From NCBI GenBank assembly GCA_040285855.1, contig JAUFOQ010000018.1, positions 434,001-498,000 of the forward strand: a stretch of DNA of 64,000 nt, read 5' to 3'. The notes below the pieces were generated by a model. It searched no databases, was not told where the DNA came from, and worked only from the letters and a program-made list of their open reading frames with translations. The DNA is from Eukaryota sp. GEM-RC1 (lineage: Eukaryota). A program made the position numbers and the translations under genes. This document shows positions 5,840 through 62,384 of the stretch, one piece after another. The stretch's first letter is position 1; each line of letters begins with the position of its first letter.

Positions 5840-8197
5840 TAGACCTGTGCAATCCACTCAGATAGTCGACTAAGTCGACTCGTAAACGCAGTCGAGTCGA
5901 GTCGACTCAAGTCATTTATTACATCACATCAAATCACACTACATGTGGTTTATAGATATTATCTTCCATTAAATAGTTCAATAAAGAATACTGAAACAAC
6001 ACCAATTGTCTTTCGTCTTTGTGGTTAAATAATTGAGTGAAGTTACTACATGTAGTACTCAATTTTATTTACACCAATTTCTTGTTTCTCCTCTTTGAAT
6101 GTCTTTACCTCCAACAAAGACCTGCAGAATTCTAACTGTACCAGGTGAAGAGATCACCATATCTTCTGATACTGAACCAGCACCGATAGTGCTATCTCCT
6201 CGTCAAACTTTCCAGGGGCATCGTCACTTCGTTTTACAAGAAGGATGGAAAGTGTGTAAGCTCTGCTCTAACGGCACTTCTTTTGCCTTAAAAACTTCAA
6301 CGACTGTCTTACGGTCTCATCTTAACGAGAAGCATCCCAACTGGGAGGGCCACTCACAACCAACTATTAAAACTGTAGCCCCAAAGATTAGGAGGAGTAC
6401 TACTAAATACATCAACCTTATGTTGGCGAAACTTGTACTGGAAAAATCTTTGTCTTTCAGTTTTGTGAACTCAAAAGCTCTAAAAGAGCTCCTGAACTTG
6501 CTAGCTCCTGGTTATAAGGTTCCCTCTAGATGGACACTTCAACGATCTCTCCATTCTGCCTTTTTGAGAAACAAAGCTGCGATTGCTAAGAAAGTTTCGA
6601 AAATTGCTGCACAATCCTTAACCACAGACCTGTGGACATCAAGATCTCAGGTACCATTTTTAGGTGTGACTGCACACTTTGTAGAGAGTGGAGAACTCAA
6701 AAGCATGGTCCTAGATGTCAAGATGCTTCCGTTTCCACACAATGACGAAGCTATTGCAATCGCAATTAAAGAAATATTGACGGAGTTTGACATTAAGAAG
6801 GTTTTGTGTGTAACCACTGATAACGCAAGAAACATGGTTAACGCGATGGAGTCACTACTTCCTTCCACATCCTCTTATCATGGGAGATGTATGGGACATG
6901 TTCTCAACATTTGTGTCAAAGCTGGTTTGGATTGCTTACAACCCTTTATTGCCAAAATACGAGAGTTTGTTGTTGACCTTCACCGAAGTCCCAAAGTTAG
7001 ACAAGAGTTCAGTGAGTTTTGTAAACGATTAGACTTTCACATTCCTAGTGAGATTGATTTGCAAAGTGGGGATGATGGTGATAACACAGAAGGAGACAAT
7101 AGCTCACAAGAAGATGGCGACAGAAGCTCCCAAGAACTTGCTGAAGATGATAAGCTCCCTGTGATTCCAAAAGGACTGATTCCATTAGATGTCGCTATTC
7201 GTTGGAACAGTTTGTACAGAATGATAAAGAGTTATCACAATTTTGGTTCTGTCATACCTTTGTTCCTTCGAAGTGTTGATAAGAACTTTTTAGCTCTTTC
7301 TCCAGATGAGGAATCTACTCTTAATCAATGCTTAGAACTGCTTAAACCGTTCTTCGCTGTCACTGAAGCTATTTCGGGAGAATCGTACCCCACCATGAGT
7401 TTTCTTTTAGCTGCTTTAACTCATTGTCTCGCTTACCTTTTGCCGAGAGACACAGATGAAACGTTCTTGTCTGAGGCCAAGCAACAAATGAAAGCCAAGT
7501 TTGATACTTATATTCCCTTCATGTACACATTTCCTGCTTTTGTGTGTGCAATCTTAGATCCTCGGTTCAAAAACCAGGTGGTTCCCCAATTAACAAACAA
7601 TTCTGGTTATTTTGAGCAATTAAAGGAGTTAATTAAGAGCCGCAAAACCGAAAAGGGTGTTCAAGAAGTCAGCGAACCAAGACTAGTACCATTTATTCCA
7701 ATTCCAATTCCATGCGGCGACGAACTTTCTCAATACTTAAGTGATCCACTGGCCGTCATAAGTACCAATCCGGTTCTTTGGTGGCATCAAAGTAAAGGCC
7801 GATATCCAATTCTCAGTGATTTGGCTGAAGAATTTTTGTCAATTCAGGCGACCTCTTCTCAAAAACAGGTGATATAGTTTCAAGGAAGCGTTGTTCTTTG
7901 AGTGACGAAAATATTAGAGCATCTGCATGTTTGCAGTCATGGAGCATCTTTCTTGGTGATGAATTTGTGTTATAGCTACTTCAGTACTTATAGACTTTAT
8001 TTGTGATGATATACTAATAGCTTTTCTTGTTTCTTGTTATAAAAATGTCCTGGATTTTGCCCGTTTTATAGACAAATGAATTTCAATGAGTGGTCTATAG
8101 TTACTATCGTTACTCAATAGTCGACTCGAGTCGACTCAAAGCCGAGTCGAGTCGACTCAGATAAATAATTAGTCGAGTCGAGTCGTGCACAGGTCTA
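5840..8197 (+). mobile_element. hAT DNA transposon (2358 bp)
   Basis: Perfect 12-bp TIR TAGACCTGTGCA/TGCACAGGTCTA. 8-bp TSD AATTATAT (5832-5839, 8198-8205). Subterminal GTCGA(C/G) repeats. Empty site GGCAATTATATTGGT in the other array units. Confidence 0.97.
6099..7975 (+). pseudogene. hAT transposase lacking the catalytic Glu segment
   Basis: BED finger CKLC..H..KH, TTDLWTS, TTDNARNM, RCMGH, RWNS, LDPRFK, WW..YP.LS.LA. After IQATS the (S)ER motif is missing and the C-terminus FSKTGDIVSRKRCSLSDENIRASACLQSW continues in another frame to TAG at 7975. Confidence 0.9.
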
Positions 8198-37860: not shown

Positions 37861-37864
37861 GCTA

Positions 37865-38351
37865 CACTCTTCACAACAATTAGTCTGAATCAGACTAATT
37901 ATGAATGTCAATTGAAACAGTACCAAACAATAATTACTCTGATTCAGACTAAATAATGGCTGGGAAAATTAGTCTGAATCAATATCCCAAACACAAACAC
38001 TATCTTGATCATAAAATCATGTTATGTCTTCATAAATGTTATGTTGTACATCAAAATCGTTGTTGGTACCTTAAATTGAGGTGTAAGACTGAAGAAATTC
38101 AGAAGAACTGGTCGGTCATCGAATTACCTCTTCAAAATTGATTAGTGACCGAATTGTCTTTCAAGCAAGTGCCAATAATGGGTGACACAGGCTGTATATG
38201 GCAATTCAACCAAAGTGTCTAGGAAGATAAGTTTAAAAAGGGATATGTAACACAATTTTACTCAAAAATATTGGACACTCCTAAAGCGGTCAAACAATAA
38301 TAAGTCTGATTCAGACTAATAAGTGATTCAGACTAATTGTTGTGAAGAGTG
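37865..38351. mobile_element. Tc1/mariner-type MITE (487 bp)
   Basis: Perfect 28-bp TIR CACTCTTCACAACAATTAGTCTGAATCA, flanked by TA on both sides. Internal AGTCTGA(A/T)TCAGACT palindromes. Confidence 0.92.
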
Positions 38352-38823
38352 TACCTGCTTTCAAACTATCGATCTGCGAAATGCAGAGTAGAACAATAAG
38401 CATACTACTCTTCCAAAAATCAGTATCTTCACAATATCTTTTGAACTGTTGGTCACGCAATATGAACATGCAGCTTTTTTACAAAAAGCCATGGGACGAA
38501 ATAGATGGAACAAAATTTCTGATTTAAAAATACAATTGGCATCTCAACTAGAACTCGTTCTGATTGATCTCAAGGTTGTTCACATTGTAACTGGCTGTTC
38601 TATTGTCAGATTGTTTCAATCATTAAGAACAGTATCGTTCAAGAGAGCTTTGCGAGCAAAATACTCACAGATCATGTTGTATCAGGTTCCACATCAAAAA
38701 CTGTCATAAAATACATGTTCGATCAATCTAACTTACAGGAATTTGAAAGAGAAGGACAATAATCATCCTTGATAGAACTGCATAGTGCAGAATTCGTATT
38801 TGTCCCCAACGTTACAAGATTGA

Positions 38824-41857: not shown

Positions 41858-43657
41858 TTAAGTACGTTGGAAAGCTTCAGGCCTAGTTCCAAATAAGTAA
41901 CCCTCTATAGCGATCTCAAGTTGATTTCTGGAGGCAGAAATATCTCTTGACCAAACCTGAGCACATGTTGGACATCGAAATATGGCGTGATTCACTCTTC
42001 TTACTCCATCAACTTCATGATATATCAACTGATGCCTCACTTTACAGCAGTTAGTTTTTGCGGAAGTGAAGTATTCATCGCCCATAATAACGGGAAAGAA
42101 TCTTTTGAGATATTCAAGGAATCCCTTTCTTGGAGACTTCACTTGCTGCCTAGATGGGCTAGCACCTCCTGTCCCAAACCAAACTCTGATTTGGCTTCCT
42201 TGTGCCATATTTTTCAAATTTTGAGCAAATAAATCAAATCGTTTCTGTTTTCTTATGAAGAAATCGAACTTGTTTCTCCGTAGGTTGGGTCTGTTCCCAT
42301 TTAATAAACACCGTTCTAGACTGTTCTTACTCATATTTTGATCAACAATAGTTTTCGATATCTCGAGCAGATACAGGTACATGTTCTGAACGGAATAGGT
42401 GTTCGACGTAGAGTTGCTCAAAGCACCAAACATAACAGTATTGATAGCCTTGGCTTTTGGTGCCAGTGTAATACCAGAGTCCAATAAATAGTCAGTGTTG
42501 GTTCCAATAGACCAACCACATAGGTTACTGTGGTTGGGATCAATTGCACACCATAACCAATCTTCATCAGGAGGAGGTTCGAAATCAGCTGTTCTCGCAC
42601 GTCGTCGTAACGGAGCCACTTTCTTCTGTAGGTTACACTTTCTCTTTCGAGACTTAACCTTGAAGTCTTCGGAGCCACTTGCCCTCCTTGACTCAAACTG
42701 CTCCTTGGTAGTACGGTTCCTTGTTTTTTTCGGCTTTGTGGAAAAATTATCCTCAAACTTACACCATCAGAGGCCAGGGTGTAAGTCTGGAAACGGGGGC
42801 GTTTCCTAAACGTTTTCAGTGGGTTACTTTTGAGAGTCCTTGAGAAGTTGAACTCTCTGAAGTGTTTCTCCACTTCCTGAGAGAATGATACAAACACTGG
42901 AGCATAGCTGGCCATTGGAACTAGAGCATGGCGGCGCATACAATCTGGCGCAGCATCCTCGAGAGCAGACAACAGGTTCAATCCAGCTGCGAATAGAAAT
43001 GAGGTGTTCGTTTCATTCAGGGCAACAGACCGTTCTGTCAATAGATTATTGAACAGGACAACATCCCCGACTAAGTGATTAAAGGTGGCCAGAGTTTGTT
43101 GGTGATGAGCATTCCACCATTGCTGCAGTGATGCTCCAGGTTGAGCACCACGTACGACAGCAGAAGCGTATCCCTTAGGGGTCGGGCAGTCGAGGAATAC
43201 AGCAGCGGTCCGGAAGAAGTTCAGCTTCCAACTGACTGGACCATCGGCCATCAGTTGTTGAAAAGCTTCAGACAACTGGCGTGACCTATCACTCAAGAGT
43301 TGTGAGTGACACCAGCGTGTCGGTTTGTGTCGGCCAAGAGGGGGGGAACGGCCAAATGGATACTGGCGGAAGACTCGACGACAGATGCAGTGCAGTGTAC
43401 ACTCCATTGTCGTTCTCAAAGGGGCGGTTTACTTTCGGCTCAGAGTGAGCAACGAACCCAAAGCACTGGTACCAGAAACGCTGGTCAGTCAACCAGCGTG
43501 CTAAGTGGGGGTGCTGGAGCACAAAGACCCGGGCCAGTAAAGTTGAGTGAACAGCAACGTCTCGAAGGTACCGAAATTGCCTGTTCATCACTGCCCGAGC
43601 TGGCGGGTCAAAAAACTTGGCAAGTGAACACGTGACCGTGGAGGTCGTGGTAGTCAT
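41858..43657 (-). CDS. Fanzor1 RNA-guided endonuclease (TnpB-like), ~599 aa after correcting two compensating homopolymer frameshifts
   Basis: N-terminal TVTCSL, SQLL..QL..F, SDGVSL, K/R-rich linker, RuvC-I CAIDP (D codon 42539-42541), VWFGTG, RuvC-II GDEYFTS (E 42074-42076), Cys residues NCC..CPTC, RuvC-III WSRDISASRN (D 41942-41944), C-terminal RPEAFQR. The 5' half is visibly more GC-rich than its flanks. Confidence 0.92.
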
Positions 43658-44193
43658 GTTCAAGAAATTTATGAAATATTGTGGATTTTCTTGTATTTCA
43701 ACTACATGTTACTTTCAGAAAAATATTTTACATCAATGATTAGAATCTTTTGGTAAATAGGTACAGTAGACTAGAGGTTGTTGTTCTCAGAATTGTTTGA
43801 ATGATCCCAATGGTATCGCTACAAGAATGAATAAGATTTACGATGGGTCATCTTAATCATCTTAATTCAAACTTTGACTTAGTGGCAACGTCTTTGTATA
43901 TGGTAGCTGCAGTATACAATCCCTGCTAGTGGAATTTGGGACTGACTGACTTTCTCCCCTTGACTGTGGGATGATTTTGTGGTGTTTCTCTCCTACTTTA
44001 CATTCATGAATCTCTTTCTCAACATCCTGAAATTCCTGACATCACTAACAGTGATAAAACGGACGACGACTCAAGAACACGAATGTTCTCAAAACACTAA
44101 GCAATAGTTTGTTGGTTTATTTATCATAAAAAGCTGTCGTCTGCTGTTAAAATTAAGATTATATTCAAGCAATATCTTCAAAAATAACTGGAA

Positions 44194-49748: not shown

Positions 49749-51540
49749 TTTTTTGAATGAGTTTTTATGGAACAAAAACACTAAAATAAACACAAATACT
49801 AGAACTCAATATCATTAAAGCAACAATCATTGCCATAAAAACTCACATCAGCTTTTTTCTTCATAAAAAACACTGAGAGCTAATAGAGCTTTTGAAATCA
49901 TGATAGGAATTGTTTTAAATATTGTGAAAACAATACGATTCAACCAAAATTTGAAATCAAATTTCTTGTTCATTCTTTTTGACCACTTTCTCAAAATCAG
50001 AGAGAAAACAAAGAGCAACTCTACCAAGTCGACCATAAATTGAAATTGCAAACGGACATAATTTGTACTCAACATGTCTAATATGTTTGAGAGCAGTCAG
50101 TGGTTCATCATATTTGTTTCTCTTGTATTGTTCTGAAGAATTCAGTGGAGAAACTTCATTTTTGCATCCTTGAATGCACTTTTTTTGCAAACATCCACAG
50201 TAATCACATCAACAACGGTTAGTTCATCATTGACTGATGGAACTATGACATCAGCTTTTCTTTTACCAAAAGTCTTATCAGAATCACTATTTTTTGAATT
50301 ATTGATTTCCAATGATCTCAACAGTGGCTCAACGAAAGATTCGAATTTGTAGGACTTACACATGGCATGAATTTGATCTCTGACAGCATCATGAATACAA
50401 GTTCTATAAGTAATGAAACGATTACAACTCAAAAGGTGAGAAAAGGTAACTAATTTGCCACATTTGCATTGAAGATCATTGGGTAAATTAGAGGGCCACA
50501 AGAAACACCGAAGTCTGAATGTTGTAGTCCATTGATGATCATTCAACAACAAACCATCAATCTGTGGAATTTGGTTAATCAAAGCAACTGAAGAACTGTC
50601 CTTCAAATCGATTAAAAAATTTGCGGAAGCTGGATTTTTTTTCTTTGGCCAAGCCAAGTCGAATTTTAAAATCCAGACATTCAAAATGTTTTAAAAGGTG
50701 TTTTTGGAGTTTCTTAAGAGCAAATTTTAACGAGGTGACACATCGTTCTGGTATTTCACAAATATCTGCTGGAAAATAAGTTTGCCAGAGGTCAGGTGAA
50801 ATTAGCGACAATTCTGATCTCAAATTTACCAAGAAAAAACTACTTGTCGAAACAAGAAGATTTTCTTGACTTGGGTACCGTCTACAGAACTCAAAGACAA
50901 AATTCTTACCACCACCAATAAAAGCAGATTTGGTCCACCATTTAGACGAAGTAAAACCAATACCACCAAGATGAGGATCTGAGAAGATGTGATTGTTCAA
51001 AGCAGCAATATCCACTGATAACAAAAATGCAAGAAAGTCAGTACGAATTTTGTTAAAGCTTCTACAGAAGTTATAGGTAAGTACAGGGGCGAGAGAGTGA
51101 AGCAGATGGGTAACTTTTCCTGAATAACAAATTTTTAGCATAAAGAATTTGAGATGTTTTTCCAATTGCAATTCCTTAATTTGATCTAATTCTTTTCGCA
51201 TTGAATCCAAATATACATTCAGATCTTTAACAATGTTGTCATGTGAACCAAGATAGCAACCTAGAAATCTAAAGCTTGAAGATAAGTAGTTCACAGAGGG
51301 AACCTCTAAAGAATTAACAATTAAAGTTACAGGTACCTTGGCAATCAAAAAACATTTTTGCACATTGAATTGAAGTCCAATTGCATCGTACAAATCAGCA
51401 GCCTGATACGCAATAATACGAAGAGTTGACATAGGCGCAATACAAGAAATGTCATCCATATAAGCTACAATTTCTAAGTCTGCATGTTCTTCTTTGAGTT
51501 TTTTCAGGATTGGATGAATAGCCAAACAAAAAAAGAAGGG
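49749..51540 (-). mobile_element. 5'-truncated RLE non-LTR retrotransposon with poly(A) tail
   Basis: AYMDD, RFLG, CxC..HLLSC, IHDAVRD, RKAD, VDVITVD motifs. 14-bp TSD ATTGTGTACAAATT (49735-49748, 51541-51554). T-run on the plus strand at the 3' end. Confidence 0.9.
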
Positions 51541-52587: not shown

Positions 52588-54387
52588 CTATGGTTTTATT
52601 AAGGAGCGTCTTAATTCATTTAAAATTAGTTTCTTTTTCTCATCATCAACTAAATTTGTTAAAAAAGTACAAAATCTGTCAAAATTAATATTTCCATTTA
52701 ATAACGTCCCTGAAAAGAATTCATGTCTGAGCGACTCCTCAACAGTTACTCTTGTACGTACATCACGAACTAACATCAGTTTCATCAATCCAATCACCGA
52801 ATAACAGACACCTTCCTTTTCTGGAAAATCAATCACGTGCGAAGGGTCAGGAATAACTCGTAGTTTCTGATACATGTTCTTATATTTATCAAACGGGGGC
52901 CGTCCAAAGATCATTTGATATAGTATACACCCTAAAGACCAAACGTCAGCTTTTCTCCCAACCTTCATAGTCCCTTCAATCCCCTGGTCAACAATAGCTT
53001 CAGGAGCAATGTAATTCAAAGTTCCAGCAAGAGAGTTTCTGTGGATATTAGTGGTATCAGATTTGATTGATCCTGCAATTCCAAAATCAATCAATTTTAA
53101 TTGACCAGAAACAAGCATGAAGTTTGCAGGTTTTAAATCTCCGTGTACTATTCGATGTTCGTGGATAACTTGAACAGATTTTAACATCCTTTCAAAGTAC
53201 ATTCTAATAAAATTAATAGAAATAAACCCTTGTTGAGTTTCTCGACGTAAAACTGTGTTTAAGTCAGTCTCACCATATTCCAGAACAAGAACCATGTGAT
53301 CGTCATCAACCTGATGGTCAATCAAATTAATGATTAGATCCGTATTATTCAACAATTTTAAATATTTGACCTCATTTAATAACATTGAGCGAGTGTTGGG
53401 ATCGTTCTTATCAAATTGGATAACTTTAAGGGCAACAAGTGTGTTGTTGGTATCTAATGCCTTGAAAACTCTAGAAGTTCCTCCTTTTCCAACCTGTCCC
53501 AAGACTTCATATGACTCTCCATTGACTTCTATTGACTTTCGCTGACGTGTACCTTCATCGGCAAATCTTACTTTTCCTTTGCCCTCTTTTTGAGTAATTA
53601 CTTTAGGTTTGGGCTTAACAGGAGTTGAGAAGGGCGAATGATAGGGTTGTGTGTGGGAAACATCTAGTGATTCCTGAACGCTTTCTTGAACACTGTCTCC
53701 AATACTGGAAATAGAATTATTAGAATTATTAGAAATATTGGTAGGTACAGTAGATTCTTTGCCATGGTCATCCTCATGATCTGATAATGACAACGCATCA
53801 TTACCTGGCTCATCTTCTTTCCCTGGAGGTCCGAGCTTAGGACGTCGTTTCCGTCTACGTAGGAAGTGCGCAGGACCAGTGGAGTTGAGAGTAGAAGGAG
53901 TACCTGTAGCATATGACGCTAGTCTTTTAGCGGGAGTAACAGGAGGACGGGAATTGAGGGACAAGAAGATCTTTAAAGACTGTATATCTGAGTTAAAGTG
54001 AGTACGGATTGAGTCAGGGAATCTGGGCTCGTGGGTGGAGATGATACTGATGGCTTCGGGTTTGTCAAACGTGGACTTTAAACGGACAAAGTCTAATAAA
54101 AGACGAATGAAGTCGTAGTTATGATAGTTGGGGTTCTGTGACAGGTGTTCGAAGGCAGATGTGTAGACCTGTAGTTTGGTATAATTGGAAGGTATGGAAT
54201 TGACAATAGACAACCATGCAGAGGGTGAGTCTGCATCATCAGGTATTGGAAAGTAAGGTGATGGAGAAGAAGGTGTAAGGGACAATGATGAAGATGAGGA
54301 TGGCGTTTCTGAGACTACTTTGAGTCTGTCGATTCTTGATCGTAAGTTATCAACTGATAACGTAGGGGTTGGAGTTGGGATAGTCAT
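52588..54387 (-). CDS. TTK: Mps1/TTK dual-specificity spindle-checkpoint kinase
   Basis: GKGGTSRVF, ALK, EYGETDL, IVHGDLKPANF, LKLIDFGIAGSIKSDTTNIHR, GTLNYIAPEA, KVGRKADVWSLGCILYQM.FGRPPF. Confidence 0.93.
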   Translation of the reverse strand: MTIPTPTPTLSVDNLRSRIDRLKVVSETPSSSSSLSLTPSSPSPYFPIPDDADSPSAWLSIVNSIPSNYTKLQVYTSAFEHLSQNPNYHNYDFIRLLLDFVRLKSTFDKPEAISIISTHEPRFPDSIRTHFNSDIQSLKIFLSLNSRPPVTPAKRLASYATGTPSTLNSTGPAHFLRRRKRRPKLGPPGKEDEPGNDALSLSDHEDDHGKESTVPTNISNNSNNSISSIGDSVQESVQESLDVSHTQPYHSPFSTPVKPKPKVITQKEGKGKVRFADEGTRQRKSIEVNGESYEVLGQVGKGGTSRVFKALDTNNTLVALKVIQFDKNDPNTRSMLLNEVKYLKLLNNTDLIINLIDHQVDDDHMVLVLEYGETDLNTVLRRETQQGFISINFIRMYFERMLKSVQVIHEHRIVHGDLKPANFMLVSGQLKLIDFGIAGSIKSDTTNIHRNSLAGTLNYIAPEAIVDQGIEGTMKVGRKADVWSLGCILYQMIFGRPPFDKYKNMYQKLRVIPDPSHVIDFPEKEGVCYSVIGLMKLMLVRDVRTRVTVEESLRHEFFSGTLLNGNINFDRFCTFLTNLVDDEKKKLILNELRRSLIKP

Positions 54388-54672: not shown

Positions 54673-54739
54673 TGACAGCGACGGGGATTGAACCCGCGCG
54701 GATTTCTCCACCAGATCCTAATTCTGGTGCCATACCACT
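54673..54739 (-). tRNA. 3' portion of a disrupted tRNA-Leu(TAG) gene (lacks first 13 nt)
   Basis: AGTGGTATGGC-A-CCAGA ATTAGGA TCTGG-variable arm-GCGGG TTCAATC CCCGT-CGCTGTC-A, with a T-run terminator downstream. The missing 5' end GACAGCGTGGCCG lies at 57408-57420. Confidence 0.85.
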
Positions 54740-55695
54740 TTTTCTCCAACTCTATTGTTCATTGTGGGAAGGTGTCTTTGAACACTGTAAGTCGAGTTTG
54801 ATGAATTAAAGCAGGCAAAAGCAATCAATGTGGTCAGAGCATCCGTCCCTCTTGGAGTCAGATTTGATTTCACTTGATTGTACAAAAACAGTAGATAAAA
54901 TGGTTGTTCAATACAAGTTTGAATGTTCTTGTAATGAAGAAACAGTGTGCGTATTTAGTATTGGTGTGAACACACTTCTTTACGATGTTTAGTCGACAAC
55001 TACATTGAGCAGAAATATATGAAACAGTTTGTATGTTTGAGATTTTAGGACACAATTAGTCTCACGAAGAATAACTTGCAGTGAGACTAATTACTGCTGC
55101 CGGTGTAATTCTCAAAAAAAGATTTATGGAACAAAAACAGTAAGATATATACAAAAACTAAAACTCAATATCATTAGTCCAACATTCAATGCCATTAAAA
55201 AAATCACATTAGCTTTTTGTTCCTTAATTAAAATTTATGGAGATAATGTTTGTTATAGGTCCTCATTTTTGGTAAATCTAGTTGGATAATGCACAATGTA
55301 AGTCATGAGTTTTTGCATTATCTGAAGCAGTAAGGGTTCATAGCACAATCGATCACACTGATTTACTTGGTAATTTCTTTAGCAATAAGACTCAAAAGAC
55401 TCTTATGACCTAATGTTATTCTCGAAGCAAGCATTTTCACCCACTCTATCGATATTGAAACAGTGGTTGAAGTTCTGATACGGCTAGCTGGGAAGAAGCA
55501 ACTCCATTGGAATGATCTTATAACGATAGATGTTGGAATATCTAATTTTATTAATACAATGTACAATGATGGAAGTAATTTCCAAAGCATTATTATTCTT
55601 GAAATATTAAGACTGACTTTGAAAGGTGTTTGGTATAAAGAAGCATAGTTCAGAATTTTACCGGTACAATTCAATTCTTCAATCTTAACTGACAC

Positions 55696-56680
55696 ATGGA
55701 CAGTCCTCTTCAGCAGATGCTTAAAGCCTTTGATTATTGTGAACTTAAGTCCAAGAAAACTTTCCCTCAAGAGTTTCTTAGAAATCACCGTCATTTAGTG
55801 GAAACAGACAGGTTGCTAGGGCCAGTGATCTGTGGAATAACCTTTCTGCACCCACTGCTGGTGCCAAAAACTTTATTTATGTTGGCCGTGCTGGAAACAG
55901 CTACTATTGTGGCCTTTCAACAGCCACAGTAGGAACTTCCTCTTGTCGTCTTAATCGACATATATTTATTCTTTTGATCTTAGTCCCTTTCAAAAACTAC
56001 TTTCTAAAATTCCAAAAGAGGAAAAAAGTGTGGCCAAAAATTTCAAGATTCTCTTGACTTTAAGAGAATTTGACTTACATCTACTTGATGAAGTTGGCAG
56101 AGATTTATGGTTACGAATTTTTGAAAGATCATGTATTTCAAAAGGACGCTTTTATATCCGAAATTCCCGAAAAGTTCCTGTGGATGAAATGGTTCTTAAT
56201 GGGTCTCCAGGCGGTGAACTTCCTTCTAAGAAAGACTCAGCTAGGGGAGGAAGAAGATCCATTGTCTCAGGAAAAATCCAAAGAACTGCTGCTCTAAAGA
56301 AATACAATGAGAGTGAAAAGGGGAAGACCCAAAACTCAACTAACGCTGTGAACACTAATACTGCTAGATGGGCAGCTATTTACTCCAAATTAATTTCTGA
56401 AGAAGGAAAAAAATACAATGCGTTTAAGCAGAACGACATATTATGTATTAAATTAAGTTTTGGAAAGTCTATTGCTGTTCCATTGCCAGAAGTCTCAACC
56501 AAGTCCCAAGAGAAATTTCCTGGTGAAAAAGGAACTGAAGTGGATGTGAAATTAATGAACAATGGAAATGAAAAACAATTAGTTGTTAGCTTTGACACAT
56601 GGTCCTATGTGATTACTCCTACTCCGAGCCAAAACACAATTAGACAAGTCATGAAGGCTATTTTTGATTATAACGAATAA
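55696..56680 (+). pseudogene. GIY-YIG homing-endonuclease-like gene, frameshifted
   Basis: FIYVGRAGNSYYCGLSTATVGTSSCRLNRH (55872-55961). One added T then gives YSFDLSPFQKLLSK..KNFKILL..L..FERSCI..LNGSPGGE, the GIY/YIG, R..H, catalytic E and N..GG layout, followed by YNESEKGK. The start codon is uncertain. Confidence 0.65.
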
Positions 56681-56989
56681 ATTGAATAATTTTAGTTCAA
56701 ATAATTGTTTCATCTTAATTTATGGTTAAGAACACATATATCCGCTGTTTGTGAGTGACTACTATAGGTTTGAGCTTAACAGAAAGAAGCGACAAAGTTC
56801 AACAGTTGAACCCTGAAGTACAGGAAATTATTGGAAAGCATTCCAAAGAATTCAATGAATCAGAGAGTGAGTTATTACAGGTTCAATTGGCTGTTCTTAG
56901 TGCCTTGCTCGTTGTTAGTCTACTTAGAAAGAGCGAAGAACCAGAGTGGAAGGAGTACATGTAGCAGATGCTGGTAAGCTTTTGGTGAG

Positions 56990-57112
56990 TGTGTTGGAAA
57001 GTAAGGTGATGGAGGAGAATGAGTAAAGGAGAATGATGAAGATGAACAAGGTGTTTCTGAGACTACTTTGAGTCTTTAAGTTACCAACTGATAACGTAGG
57101 GGTTGGAGTCAC
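56990..57112 (-). pseudogene. Diverged duplicate of the 5' end of the TTK gene
   Basis: GTTTCTGAGACTACTTTGAGTCT and CAACTGATAACGTAGGGGTTGGAGT match 54305-54375. Confidence 0.8.
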
Positions 57113-57305
57113 TTGTTCTGAAGCAAGTTTTGAGAATTTCTAGATCAGTAACATCAAGACATGAACAAAAAGTACACAACTCAATATCAAGGCAACATTC
57201 CTTACCATAGAAACTCACAAAAGCTTCTTCTTCATACATGCATAACCATTTGTTATAAACATGTATAACACAATATTGTCTTTAGCTGTTGTTTTGTCAA
57301 AAATT

Positions 57306-57388
57306 TGACAGTGATGGGGTTCGAACCCACGCGGAACCTAATCCACTTGATCCTAATTCAAGCACCTTTACCACTCGGTCACACTGTC
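57306..57388 (-). tRNA. tRNA-Leu(TAG), intact, 83 nt
   Basis: GACAGTG/CACTGTC acceptor stem, ACC..GGT D arm, CTTGA ATTAGGA TCAAG anticodon arm, long variable arm, GTGGG TTCGAAC CCCAT T arm, discriminator A, downstream TTTTT. Confidence 0.92.
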
Positions 57389-57404
57389 ACAACGATGTTT
57401 CTTG

Positions 57405-59022
57405 ACTCGGCCACGCTGTCTCCCGAATTAATTGGTTGTTTTTATGAGAACTTAATCGGAAAACGATAATTTTATGTTATAAATTAACGAAATACAAACA
57501 ACTAGTACTTAAAAGATATTAAATGATCCACATCTACTCTTGAACTATCACGATACAATTTGTCCAGAATACGATTCAAATACTTTGGGAAACTTCTATA
57601 TAAGGAAAAAACAATGCGATTGCGCCAAATAGACTGATTAAAATTTTTCCTATGGTCACGGCACAACTTTGAAAAGGCATCAAAGAATTTTTCAGCAGCA
57701 AATCCAATATTACCAAGAATTGAAATAGCAAAAGGAATGAACTTAAAAGAAGAATACAAATTGGAATTCAGTTTGATCATTGTGTCAGAATATGTATTAT
57801 TTTTTCTTTTTTCAGCTTTGGATAAATGATTTTCAGTATCACTCGAAACTGAATTCAAATATACTTTAGCACTTAATCGGAATATTGTATTTTATTGATA
57901 TATTTTCATTCTGTTTTATCACTACTTGAAATCATTGATGGCTTTAAAACATGTAATACCTGTTGAATACGAATTATTCCCGAATAACGCTCGGCCACGC
58001 TGTCTTCCGAATTAATTGGTTGTTTTTATGAGAACTTAATCGGAATATTGTATTATATTATATTTTAACTTTGTTAGATTTCTACTTGAAATCATTGATG
58101 GCTTTAAAACATGTCAAACATGTTGAATACGAAATATGCCCGAATAACGCTCGGTCACGCTGTCTTCCGAATTAATTGGCTGTTTTTATGAGAACTTAAT
58201 CGGAATATTGTATTATATTATATTTTAATTTTGTTTGATTTCTACTTGAAATCATTGATGGCTTTAAAACATTGTAAAACATGTTGAATACGAATTATTC
58301 CCGAATAACGCTGGGCCACGCTTTCTTCCGAATTTAGTGGTTGTTTGGATGGGAACTTAATCGGAATATTGTATTATATTATATTTTAATTTTGTTTGAT
58401 TTCTACTTGAAATCATTGATGGCTTTAAAACATGTAAAACATGTTGAATACGAAATATGCCCGAATAACGCTCGGCCACGCTGTCTTCCGAATTTAGTGG
58501 TTGTTTGGATGGGAACTTAATCGGAATATTGTATTATATTATATTTTAATTTTGTTTGATTTCTACTTGAAATCATTGATGGCTTTAAAACATGTAAAAC
58601 ATGTTGAATACGAAATATGCCCGAATAACGCTCGGCCACGCTGTCTTCCGAATTAATTGGTTGTTTTTATGAGAACTTAATCGGAATATTGTATTATAGT
58701 ATATTTTAATTTTGTTTGATTTCTACTTGAAATCATTGATGGCTTTAAAACATGTAAAACATGTTGAATACGAAATATGCCCGAATAACGCTCGGCCACG
58801 CTGTCTTCCGAATTAATTGGTTGTTTTTATGAGAACTTAATCGGAATATTGTATTATATTATATTTTAATTTTGTTTGATTTCTACTTGAAATCATTGAT
58901 GGCTTTAAAACATTGTAAAACATGTTGAATACGAATTATTCCCGAATAACGCTCGGCCACGCTGTCTTCCGAATTTAGTGGTTGTTTGGATGGGAACTTA
59001 ATCGGAATATTGTTTTATATTA
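57405..59022 (-). repeat. 160/161-bp tandem array; each unit is upstream flank plus the first 15-16 nt of tRNA-Leu
   Basis: CTCGGCCACGCTGTC (rc GACAGCGTGGCCGAG) or a 1-2 mismatch variant at 57406, 57990, 58150, 58311, 58471, 58631, 58791, 58952. The first unit is interrupted by a LINE and the last is partial. Confidence 0.95.
57462..57870 (-). mobile_element. 5'-truncated RLE non-LTR insertion in the tRNA-upstream repeat
   Basis: RLE C-terminus (AEKRK, FIPFAISILG, WRNRIVF). 12-bp TSD ACTTAATCGGAA (57450-57461, 57871-57882). Empty site present in the other units. Confidence 0.9.
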
Positions 59023-59227
59023 TAATGTAACGAGATTGCAAACTACATACTACAATATGTATGTAGATACAGTAGTTTATTTTTATTTGTAGTTTATTTT
59101 TTGACTAATTATTTTTATTGACAACAACACTACTAGATAGAGCTGTCAAATGGCTAGCCTCAAGCCGTAAGCCGATGGACTTGAGAAAAGTCATATCCAA
59201 ATTTGGCTTGGCTTACTCAAATGACTC

Positions 59228-60355: not shown

Positions 60356-60790
60356 TGTTCTGTATCACGATACAATTTATCCAGACTACGATTCAAATAC
60401 TATGGGAAACTTCTATATAAAGAAAAAACTATGTGATTGCACCAAAGAGTCTGATTATAATTATTCCTTTGATCATGACACAATTTTGTAAAGGCAACAA
60501 AGAAATTTTCAGCAGCACTTCAAATATTATTAAGAAGAAAAAATAAGGAATAGCAAAAGAACTTAAAAGAAGTATACAAAACGGAATGAATTCAGTTCGA
60601 TCATTGTGTCAGATTATGTACCAATCTTTCTTATTTCTGCTTTGGATTAATGGTTTTCGGAGTCACTCGAAACTGAATTCAAATACACTTTTGCACATGG
60701 ACCAACGATAGTAAAATCTGTCACTGCATGACAAGAATCAAGATATGGCAGAAAGAGATCACCTCGTCGAGAATTGGTAATATTACGATC
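60356..60790 (-). mobile_element. Degenerate RLE non-LTR fragment, same family as 57462-57870
   Basis: Aligns by eye to 57545-57870 (TATCACGATACAATTT, CACTCGAAACTGAATTCAAAT) and extends to the RRGDL motif. Confidence 0.8.
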
Positions 60791-61032
60791 ACTATTAGTT
60801 GTTTTTATGAGAACTTAATTGGAATGGTTCAATAAATTCTTCTTGAATTTGAACAAAACTTCAGTTAACCATTGGTTTGTACTGTTCTAAAAAAATATTA
60901 TAGAAACAAAGTTATTCTACTGAAAGGATTGATCTCGATTAAACTGTCCTTTTTGGATGGGATTGTCTCATTCATGGCACCAACGCATTCACGAAATTGT
61001 AGACGAAAGCACTTAAATCAATCTAATTTTAT

Positions 61033-62384
61033 CATAGTTGCAAATCACAAATTTTTGTGATGTGATTTTGTGATGTGATTGGTGTGATGTGGAGTGAATC
61101 ACAAACACAGCGTTTGTGATGAGATTTTGTGATTTGTGATGTGATTGCATCACGTGTACTTTGTGTTGTGATGACAAACTGTAGTCCTGTACAGTTCTTC
61201 TATCCCAAGTATCTCGAATTATTCGAGGAGAAGTAGAATATGAATTGTTCTGGCCCCACTTGAAACTAATTGTTGCCGCAGTAACCCCATGGTTGAGCTT
61301 ACTGCGAATGCCCGATGAATCAGCATCTGGATTTTCTTCATTCTTTTGTGGGCATATGGAGTGACTCGATCCAAAATGGAACATTGTATTTTTTCCACAT
61401 CAAGGTCCATTAACGATGAGTATGGCCAAGAAATTTTTACCGAACACTTATGCGAGAATTGCCGAACGCAAATCTTAGACGATATTGCTAAGTTTCGACT
61501 GCACTATATTTCTTCTCCTGGACTGATTTTCTCCCGAATCCTAAATCCCTCATTACATGCGGCAAACGTCCATCTGTTTGCTGATCAAGAACGGATGCTT
61601 ATTCTCCAGCAGTACTTTGATCTCAATTTTGCTGACCATGCACAACAGCTTAAAGTAGAGTTGACTGAGTATATAGAGTCCGGTTACTCGTTTACTGATC
61701 TTGATGACATTGCTTCTCATACATGGTGGATTGCTACCGGACAATCTTCTTTTCCTTTACTCTCAAAAATTGCGCCCAGAATAACTCAAAATGCTGCCCG
61801 TGCTTCTTCCACAGAAAGGAATAGGTCTACGTTTGACCATCAGTTACCAAAACGTAGAAGCCGTCTGGGTACCGACTTACTGAATGACTCTGTGACCATT
61901 GCATTCAACTATCCACTACTCCAAAGGAAGCCTGCTGATATGACGATGAACAGAATGATTTTAGCTTTAACTGCAGCACCAGAGCAAGTGATGCTGAACG
62001 AATCATTGATTGTTCCCGTCTCCGATACTGATATCACTACAATTGACGAAGTTGATTTAGATCTCAGTATGAATGAGGAATGTATAGAGGAAGTTATTGA
62101 TGTAGATTTCGTAGAGCCTAACGAATGTCAGGGGGGACAAGTTAGAAGTTCTGCTGTTTTAGTTGAGAAAGAAGATAGTGTACTACCGCTTCCCAAACAA
62201 AATAGGGGTTTTTTTGTAATACATGTATGTATGTTTATAAAGACTTGTATTTGGTACTTTTATGTAAACTTGTGATGAAATCTATCACATAAATCACACA
62301 AATCACGTGTGATGTGATGGATGTGATGTGATTGCTGTGATGTGAGGGAATCACAAAGTAATATTTTTGTGATTTACAACTATG
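61033..62384 (+). mobile_element. Internally deleted hAT transposon (1352 bp) retaining the transposase C-terminus
   Basis: TIR CATAGTTG(C/T)AAATCACAAA. 8-bp TSD AATTTTAT (61025-61032, 62385-62392). TGTGA/TCACA subterminal repeats. ORF 61346-62275 contains WW...FPLLSKIA..ASSTERNRS...KRRSRL (hAT dimerisation domain). Confidence 0.93.

Follow-up and report, generated by a model that had tools for sequence, protein, structure and literature searches.

How did a gene for tRNA-Leu(TAG) come to lie in two pieces, with an intact tRNA gene of the same anticodon and a nuclease-like gene between them? The question is raised by a stretch of 64,000 nucleotides (nt) from Eukaryota sp. GEM-RC1 (contig JAUFOQ010000018.1, positions 434,001 to 498,000 of the forward strand), referred to here as the window. 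A first-pass annotation had read the arrangement as a homing-type cassette that destroys a tRNA gene and supplies a resistant substitute. The explanation favoured here, to which we give a probability of roughly 0.55, is that the gene was split by a single break in its A-box, at nt 14 to 16 of the tRNA, and was repaired by template-switch copying of related DNA, with the nuclease-like gene as a passenger. A one-off DNA-repair scar is likely, rather than a mobile element. What is observed is the split itself, eight tRNA 5' pieces ending at nt 15 or 16, an overlap of 2 to 3 nt at the junctions and an insert of patchwork composition; one break at nt 14 to 16 could account for all of these. The two pieces of the split gene are:

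57405..57420, minus strand: 5' piece of the split gene (nt 1-16), which is also the end of an eighth repeat unit
54673..54739, minus strand: 3' piece of the split gene (nt 14-80), with a T-run behind it, placed by sequence overlap and by the join

As originally described, the pieces are collinear on the minus strand and have AGT in common where they overlap. The 80-nt tRNA with a perfect acceptor stem that their joining was said to restore was also found: ARAGORN calls the join as tRNA-Leu(tag), with seven of seven acceptor pairs and five of five anticodon pairs formed, and one G-T pair each in the D stem and the T stem. A 5' partner that pairs equally well is expected by chance 0.0003 times per window, and none occurred in 30 simulated windows. 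It is clear that the split tRNA gene is real and that its 5' partner is not a chance match. Insertion into a formerly intact tRNA gene is supported, in agreement with the first proposal, and the order of the parts resembles that of yeast WHO elements. The split is probably recent, because the 3' piece is without visible decay; an exact 29-nt search for this piece in metagenome contigs returned no stretches. Splicing of the two tRNA halves, in trans or as an intron, is unsupported, the duplex energies of the sequences flanking the halves being not clearly below those of shuffles (7% and 79% of 300 as low); the internal tRNA, in addition, is followed by a T6 run.

The position of the junction recalls Dada-type DNA transposons, and such an element, or a one-ended transposition of one, might have opened the A-box. 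According to the published accounts (PMC3706591, PMC8869645), Dada elements share with this locus insertion in the A-box region (here with the junction at nt 14 to 16) and the lack of terminal inverted repeats. Dada families insert at tRNA nt 8 to 13, and one targets TGGCCG followed by AG, a sequence present here (PMC8869645); the 3' piece begins at nt 14 to 15. However, Dada elements are described there as encoding a DDE transposase and duplicating 6 to 7 bp (nt 8 to 13). In this locus the overlap is 2 to 3 nt at nt 14 to 16, inspection of the junction found no duplication of tRNA nt 8 to 13 on the right side of the insert, and the segment holds no open reading frame for a DDE transposase and no Pfam match. 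The Dada analogy drawn earlier fails on transposase and target-site duplication alike, and we regard an origin of this kind as extremely improbable.

The left side of the insert is bordered by a tandem array and by ends of retroelements without long terminal repeats (non-LTR):

57871..59031, minus strand: tandem array of 7.2 units of 160 bp, with a mean divergence between units of 4.3%
57462..57870, minus strand: 5'-truncated non-LTR retroelement end with 123 open codons, which separates the last unit from the array
60363..60825, minus strand: older, stop-riddled copy of the 57462-57870 retroelement end, 82.5% identical to 57546-57872

Each array unit comprises tRNA nt 1 to 15 and then an inverted scrap of retroelement endonuclease sequence, which matches 50053-50105 at 75%. 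The 5' 15-mer of the tRNA has eight copies, one at the junction and one in each of seven array units (six exact, one with one mismatch and one with two), and all eight 5' pieces stop at nt 15, the last one at nt 16. The last repeat unit overlaps the 3' piece by 3 nt, the other units by 2 nt. Since each of three array units matches the 56 nt that precede the junction (57406-57461) at all but 1 nt, the 5' piece as first described is itself an array unit. The 2.67-kb insert bounded by 57405 holds for this last unit, but other units end in the same 5' piece. The original left half could be the last unit or the first, with the original left junction at 57405 or at 58952 and an insert of 2.67 or 4.2 kb, respectively. 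Terminal inverted repeats are absent at either possible left end of the insert.

The retroelement end at 57462-57870 is flanked on both sides by a 12-bp repeat (57871-57882 and 57450-57461). From their motifs we take the retroelement pieces to be CRE-like; Pfam gives only RVT_1. Two copies of one retroelement end (57462 and about 59008, minus strand) have a common stop point 41 nt upstream of a tRNA 5' piece; one is open-framed and the other decayed. A site preference of this retroelement near tRNA genes is possible. The 41 nt before the 5' piece (57421-57461 and in each unit) have a short imperfect inverted repeat at both ends and are fold-back-like. The first 31 nt of the 60363-60825 copy recur just upstream of every tRNA 5' piece (29 of 31 nt identical to 57431-57461). 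The 31-nt repeat at 60795-60825 was considered as a target-site duplication and dropped, as it more likely lies within retroelement coding sequence.

A local non-LTR retroelement may itself have caused the break or the patchwork, its endonuclease nicking near the tRNA gene and its reverse transcriptase jumping between templates. The common stop of two copies 41 nt upstream of the tRNA 5' piece, the inverted endonuclease scrap in the array unit and the recurrence, inside a retroelement remnant, of the 31 nt upstream of each 5' piece are consistent with this. However, those insertions lie upstream of the tRNA gene and not at nt 14 to 16, and the 2.67-kb insert has no Pfam match to a reverse transcriptase, although one weak in-window similarity was seen (1 of 1000 shuffles, in one of three queries). 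Furthermore, the insert has genes on both strands as well as non-coding spacers, unlike a single reverse-transcribed DNA. Such a retroelement is an improbable cause.

The insert and the gene beyond its right end contain:

57306..57388, minus strand: intact, long-diverged tRNA-Leu(TAG) isodecoder, followed by a T6 run (ARAGORN; Rfam 56.8 bits)
57161..57236, minus strand: scrap of a dispersed repeat seen at several retroelement ends in the window, 75-80% identical to seven other places
56745..57124, minus strand: TTK pseudogene, decayed and with internal deletions, corresponding to the 5' half of the neighbouring gene, 380 bp in collinear pieces
55782..56680, plus strand: orphan gene with a GIY-YIG-like motif order, in two frames (55782-56054 and 55955-56680)
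55120..55222, minus strand: second scrap of the same dispersed repeat as 57161-57236, 77-84% identical to several places
54740..55119, no strand assigned: right end of the insert, without a relative in the window and without homology to the left flanks
52588..54387, minus strand: intact TTK/Mps1-type kinase gene, 285 bp downstream of the 3' piece

After the intact tRNA, the insert thus runs through a 76-bp repeat scrap, the TTK copy, the orphan gene (on the opposite strand) and about 560 bp without a clear relative, and it ends, past the second repeat scrap, in 380 bp without a relative. Homology is lacking at both junctions, where the overlap is 2 to 3 nt.

The intact but diverged tRNA gene reported 16 nt from the junction is where it was said to be, 16 nt from the left junction at 57405, and is the sole tRNA called by ARAGORN in the window. 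It is identical to the join in 63 of 83 alignment columns and differs at 20. There are five compensatory changes among 24 stem pairs, indicating that both tRNA types have long been under selection. The 5' end of the isodecoder agrees with the 5' piece at 14 of 16 nt, with several further differences just beyond nt 16. Loss of the split gene was probably made harmless by the intact isodecoder. A pyrimidine is usual at tRNA position 32, the first of the anticodon loop; it is A in both tRNA-Leu(TAG) types (57306-57388 and 54673-54739).

The TTK fragment reported inside the segment is present, but as a 380-bp collinear pseudogene with deletions rather than one short piece (score 351 against the neighbour gene, versus 105 +/- 7 for 30 shuffles). 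Its five solid pieces, 222 nt in all, carry 32 differences (14%). As these differences are spread evenly over codon positions and the synonymous share (10 changes) is near that expected at random (28%), the copy has decayed neutrally. The tRNA pair is more diverged than this neutral pseudogene. The tRNA-to-TTK spacers of the insert and of the flank do not align (score 26 versus 28 +/- 5 for shuffles, with 69% of 300 shuffles as good). A simple tandem duplication of tRNA and TTK was rejected: collinear paralogs of both are present, but the spacers are unalignable and the divergences mismatched. Judged from its sequence, the insert mirrors its host locus, yet is no simple duplicate of it. A second TTK copy, GEMRC1_010286 (P0001), has 96% amino acid identity and stops inside the kinase domain after residue 437. 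A TTK-based scan of metagenome contigs gave 79 pattern matches, none of them a relative.

Repair by templated insertion draws on several templates, leaves short overlaps at its junctions and may be accompanied by local tandem amplification. At this locus, the left end would have been extended through an inverted retroelement scrap and then back over its own last ~100 bp, producing a 160-bp unit whose end is set by that of the template and that was later amplified. A unit copied from the broken left arm would end at the end of that arm, so that the shared end point would call for no repeated cutting. The last unit would have been linked to 2.67 kb of sequence, copied from a donor with the old tRNA-Leu isodecoder, the TTK pseudogene and the orphan gene. 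Choice of the donor was probably steered by likeness on both sides of the break, to the 5' end of the isodecoder (14 of 16 nt) and to TTK on the right. Such likeness would bring a tRNA of the same anticodon to the junction even if resistance to cleavage had never been selected for. The young retroelement would afterwards have inserted in the last unit.

Local rearrangement, which the first-pass annotation had named as a real alternative, fits more of the evidence than homing does. Self-comparison shows that 60% of the window matches another part of it, and the window contains 7.1-kb tandem repeats, many reverse-transcriptase fragments, nested retroelement fragments, hAT transposase genes and a TnpB-like gene. 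With this degree of self-repetition, tandem repeats and nested retroelements, arrays and patchwork are the local norm. A break at a tRNA gene, short overlaps, several templates and tandem amplification are likewise features of templated insertions and rearrangement scars. Unlike in the usual templated scar, however, the captured piece carries a same-anticodon tRNA and an orphan nuclease-like gene. Yeast tRNA genes are documented breakpoints of rearrangement, as described in PMC2817429. Read as the outcome of repair, the locus is a clear but ordinary scar in a repeat-rich region, and an example of tRNA gene breakage and replacement in a little-studied metamonad.

Several points weigh against repair. 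The donor locus is unseen, which is a weak point, and so is the greater age of the donor's tRNA compared with the donor's TTK copy. Because the tRNAs differ at 20 of 83 columns with five compensatory changes, whereas the TTK copy has diverged neutrally by 14% and the spacers are unalignable, an extra step in the assembly of the donor is needed. In addition, the 5' piece gives way to two different sequences (array-type and insert-type) at almost the same base, which would also fit repeated cutting at one site. Finally, the presence of a gene with GIY-YIG motif order 0.7 to 1.0 kb from both junctions would have to be a coincidence.

That gene had been described as GIY-YIG-like. The description stands for the order of its motifs, but profiles are negative, the gene is in two frames and there is no in-frame ATG before the first motif. 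The frame changes near 55960, within an AT-rich run, and a stop lies at 55779-55781. The annotated model GEMRC1_011219 (P0126) is identical to the orphan gene over 231 amino acids. No match to the protein was found in Pfam, PHROGs, NCBIfam, PDB sequences or phage records, and nine pattern matches in viral contigs included no relative. The ESM Atlas gave no usable match for P0126 or P0122 as queries, the N-terminal piece not being among the queries. A hidden Markov model (HMM) built from 54 sequences of viral GIY-YIG domains gave the read-through protein (with X at the break) 0.2 bits, and 609 of 2000 shuffles scored as high; a 14-sequence GIY-YIG HMM also missed it.

In contrast to these profiles, a gap-tolerant seven-block test found the family blocks in order, a result reached by 0, 1 and 2 of 2000 shuffles at three gap penalties and by none of 38 window controls, with blocks taken from the 54-sequence family and chosen after motifs had been spotted by eye. 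The block score (26 to 35) is far below the 10th percentile of the family (60 to 65), and the expected Glu block is not the one chosen. Single-sequence structural models were of low confidence (mean predicted local distance difference test scores of 36 and 57), one of them showing two strands and then a helix; fold searches with these models, whose confidence is too low for the outcome to mean much, gave nothing at E <= 0.001. On motif order, a GIY-YIG assignment is plausible.

One paralog of the orphan gene was found, GEMRC1_010314, with 90% identity over 103 amino acids, after which it is out of frame. It was among three matches in 50% cluster representatives; the other two (Hydra, Enterovibrio) are long repetitive proteins and were set aside as repeat-driven. 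GEMRC1_010314 and the TTK copy GEMRC1_010286 lie 28 gene models from each other, at a distance of ~930 models from this locus. All three are on a contig of 2,239,312 bp, and at average gene density the two sites would lie near opposite contig ends. The GEMRC1_010314/GEMRC1_010286 region is a plausible exchange partner. In the sister isolates no relative of the orphan protein was found among 457 candidates of 132 to 422 amino acids or among 62 longer candidates.

If homing were responsible, this would be a WHO-like metamonad allele, in which a divergent GIY-YIG protein cuts the A-box of the split-type tRNA-Leu(TAG) gene and travels with a resistant isodecoder. The old 3' part would have been pushed downstream, and repeated cutting would have left the tandem 5' stubs. 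The order of the parts (resistant target, endonuclease, displaced old 3' fragment) matches the WHO model as set out in PMC7282813, and the displaced 3' piece (54673-54739) lies 1043 bp beyond the orphan gene. Homing is also in keeping with the ordered motif blocks (0 to 2 of 2000 shuffles), with the end of all eight 5' pieces at nt 15 to 16 and with an isodecoder in which 2 of the first 16 nt, and several more that follow closely, are different. The array-type junction overlap is 2 nt, and the nuclease SegB is described as leaving mostly 2-nt 3' overhangs (PMC2330249) and as able to drive tandem amplification near tRNA genes (PMC13096335).

Against homing, the standard profiles miss the protein (0.2 bits, with 609 of 2000 shuffles as high), and the orphan gene as assembled is frameshifted and without an in-frame start. 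It has a single truncated paralog, no relative among the 457 and 62 homologue candidates and no multi-copy family that was found. WHO homing yields a chimeric gene through homology at the cut, whereas here a whole tRNA lies 16 nt away and the right junction is without homology. The TTK pseudogene and repeat scraps would be unexplained cargo, and the segment has no defined termini. The assignment as a nuclease is weak, and the homing-type cassette claimed in the first-pass annotation is not supported. Overall, its observation is partly confirmed and its interpretation, which includes the insertion, partly supported; homing is unlikely.

As portrayed in the reports on Torulaspora (PMC7282813; bioRxiv 10.64898/2026.08.13.744650), WHO elements share with this locus a nuclear location, a diverged working target, an endonuclease (here an endonuclease-like) gene and a displaced 3' part. 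However, the WHO protein is a LAGLIDADG enzyme with proven cleavage, while the protein here is broken, weakly GIY-YIG-like and of no Pfam or NCBIfam family. With WHO elements, joining is by homology and a chimeric gene results, whereas this locus has a tRNA gene as its target, a complete second gene and non-homologous junctions. In phages T4 and T6, segB is likewise a free-standing GIY-YIG gene among tRNA genes, and its product cuts tRNA gene sequence and can trigger tandem amplification (PMC2330249, PMC13096335). SegB differs in recognizing a T-arm motif, in having an intact gene and in leaving no split tRNA gene. SegB scores well against PF01541, and the orphan gene showed no detectable similarity to SegB in the 14- and 54-sequence HMM tests. 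In the copy at this locus, the orphan gene lies next to tRNA genes, and its frame is not intact. No eukaryotic nuclear counterpart (homing of a GIY-YIG gene at a tRNA gene) turned up in open-access literature text. If homing were true, the locus would be a tRNA-gene, GIY-YIG counterpart of the yeast WHO elements. Intron-free, intein-free homing, as at FBA1 in yeast, would then extend to tRNA genes and involve a second family of nucleases, and the enzyme could be tested directly on its target.

The window comes from a eukaryote: its TTK/Mps1-type kinase (52588-54387) shares 96% identity with a protein labelled Eukaryota sp. GEM-RC1, and 50% and 43% with proteins of two sister isolates. According to PMC11316075, GEM-RC and its sister isolates are free-living metamonads of the genus Skoliomonas, and the GEM-RC assembly (33.5 Mb, 48% repetitive) has 119x long-read and 116x short-read cover. 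These figures bear on the possibility of an assembly or polishing error that wrongly connected long reads from the repeat array with others from paralogous tRNA/TTK sequence. Such an error would be in keeping with a left junction next to a tandem array, with the presence of a 96% TTK copy elsewhere and with the location of the frame break in an AT-rich run. However, such deep cover of the matching organism (PMC11316075) speaks against it, as does the size of the whole structure (<7 kb). In addition, the pieces differ by 4 to 24% from their relatives, which is more than collapsed copies would. An error of this type is very improbable.

The window has some further features. Positions 11951-37060 hold ~3.5 tandem copies of a 7.1-kb unit (99% identity) built of nested retroelement fragments on both strands. 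A TnpB/Fanzor-like gene (41858-43708, minus strand) is in three overlapping frames, and its last piece matches the Pfam entry Cas12f1-like_TNB at E 1.3e-5, just under the cut-off. A perfect 30-bp inverted repeat pair is found at 37863-37892 and 38324-38353. Two hAT-type transposase genes are present on the plus strand, one at 6099-7877, which is nearly full length with a BED finger, and the other at 61346-62275.

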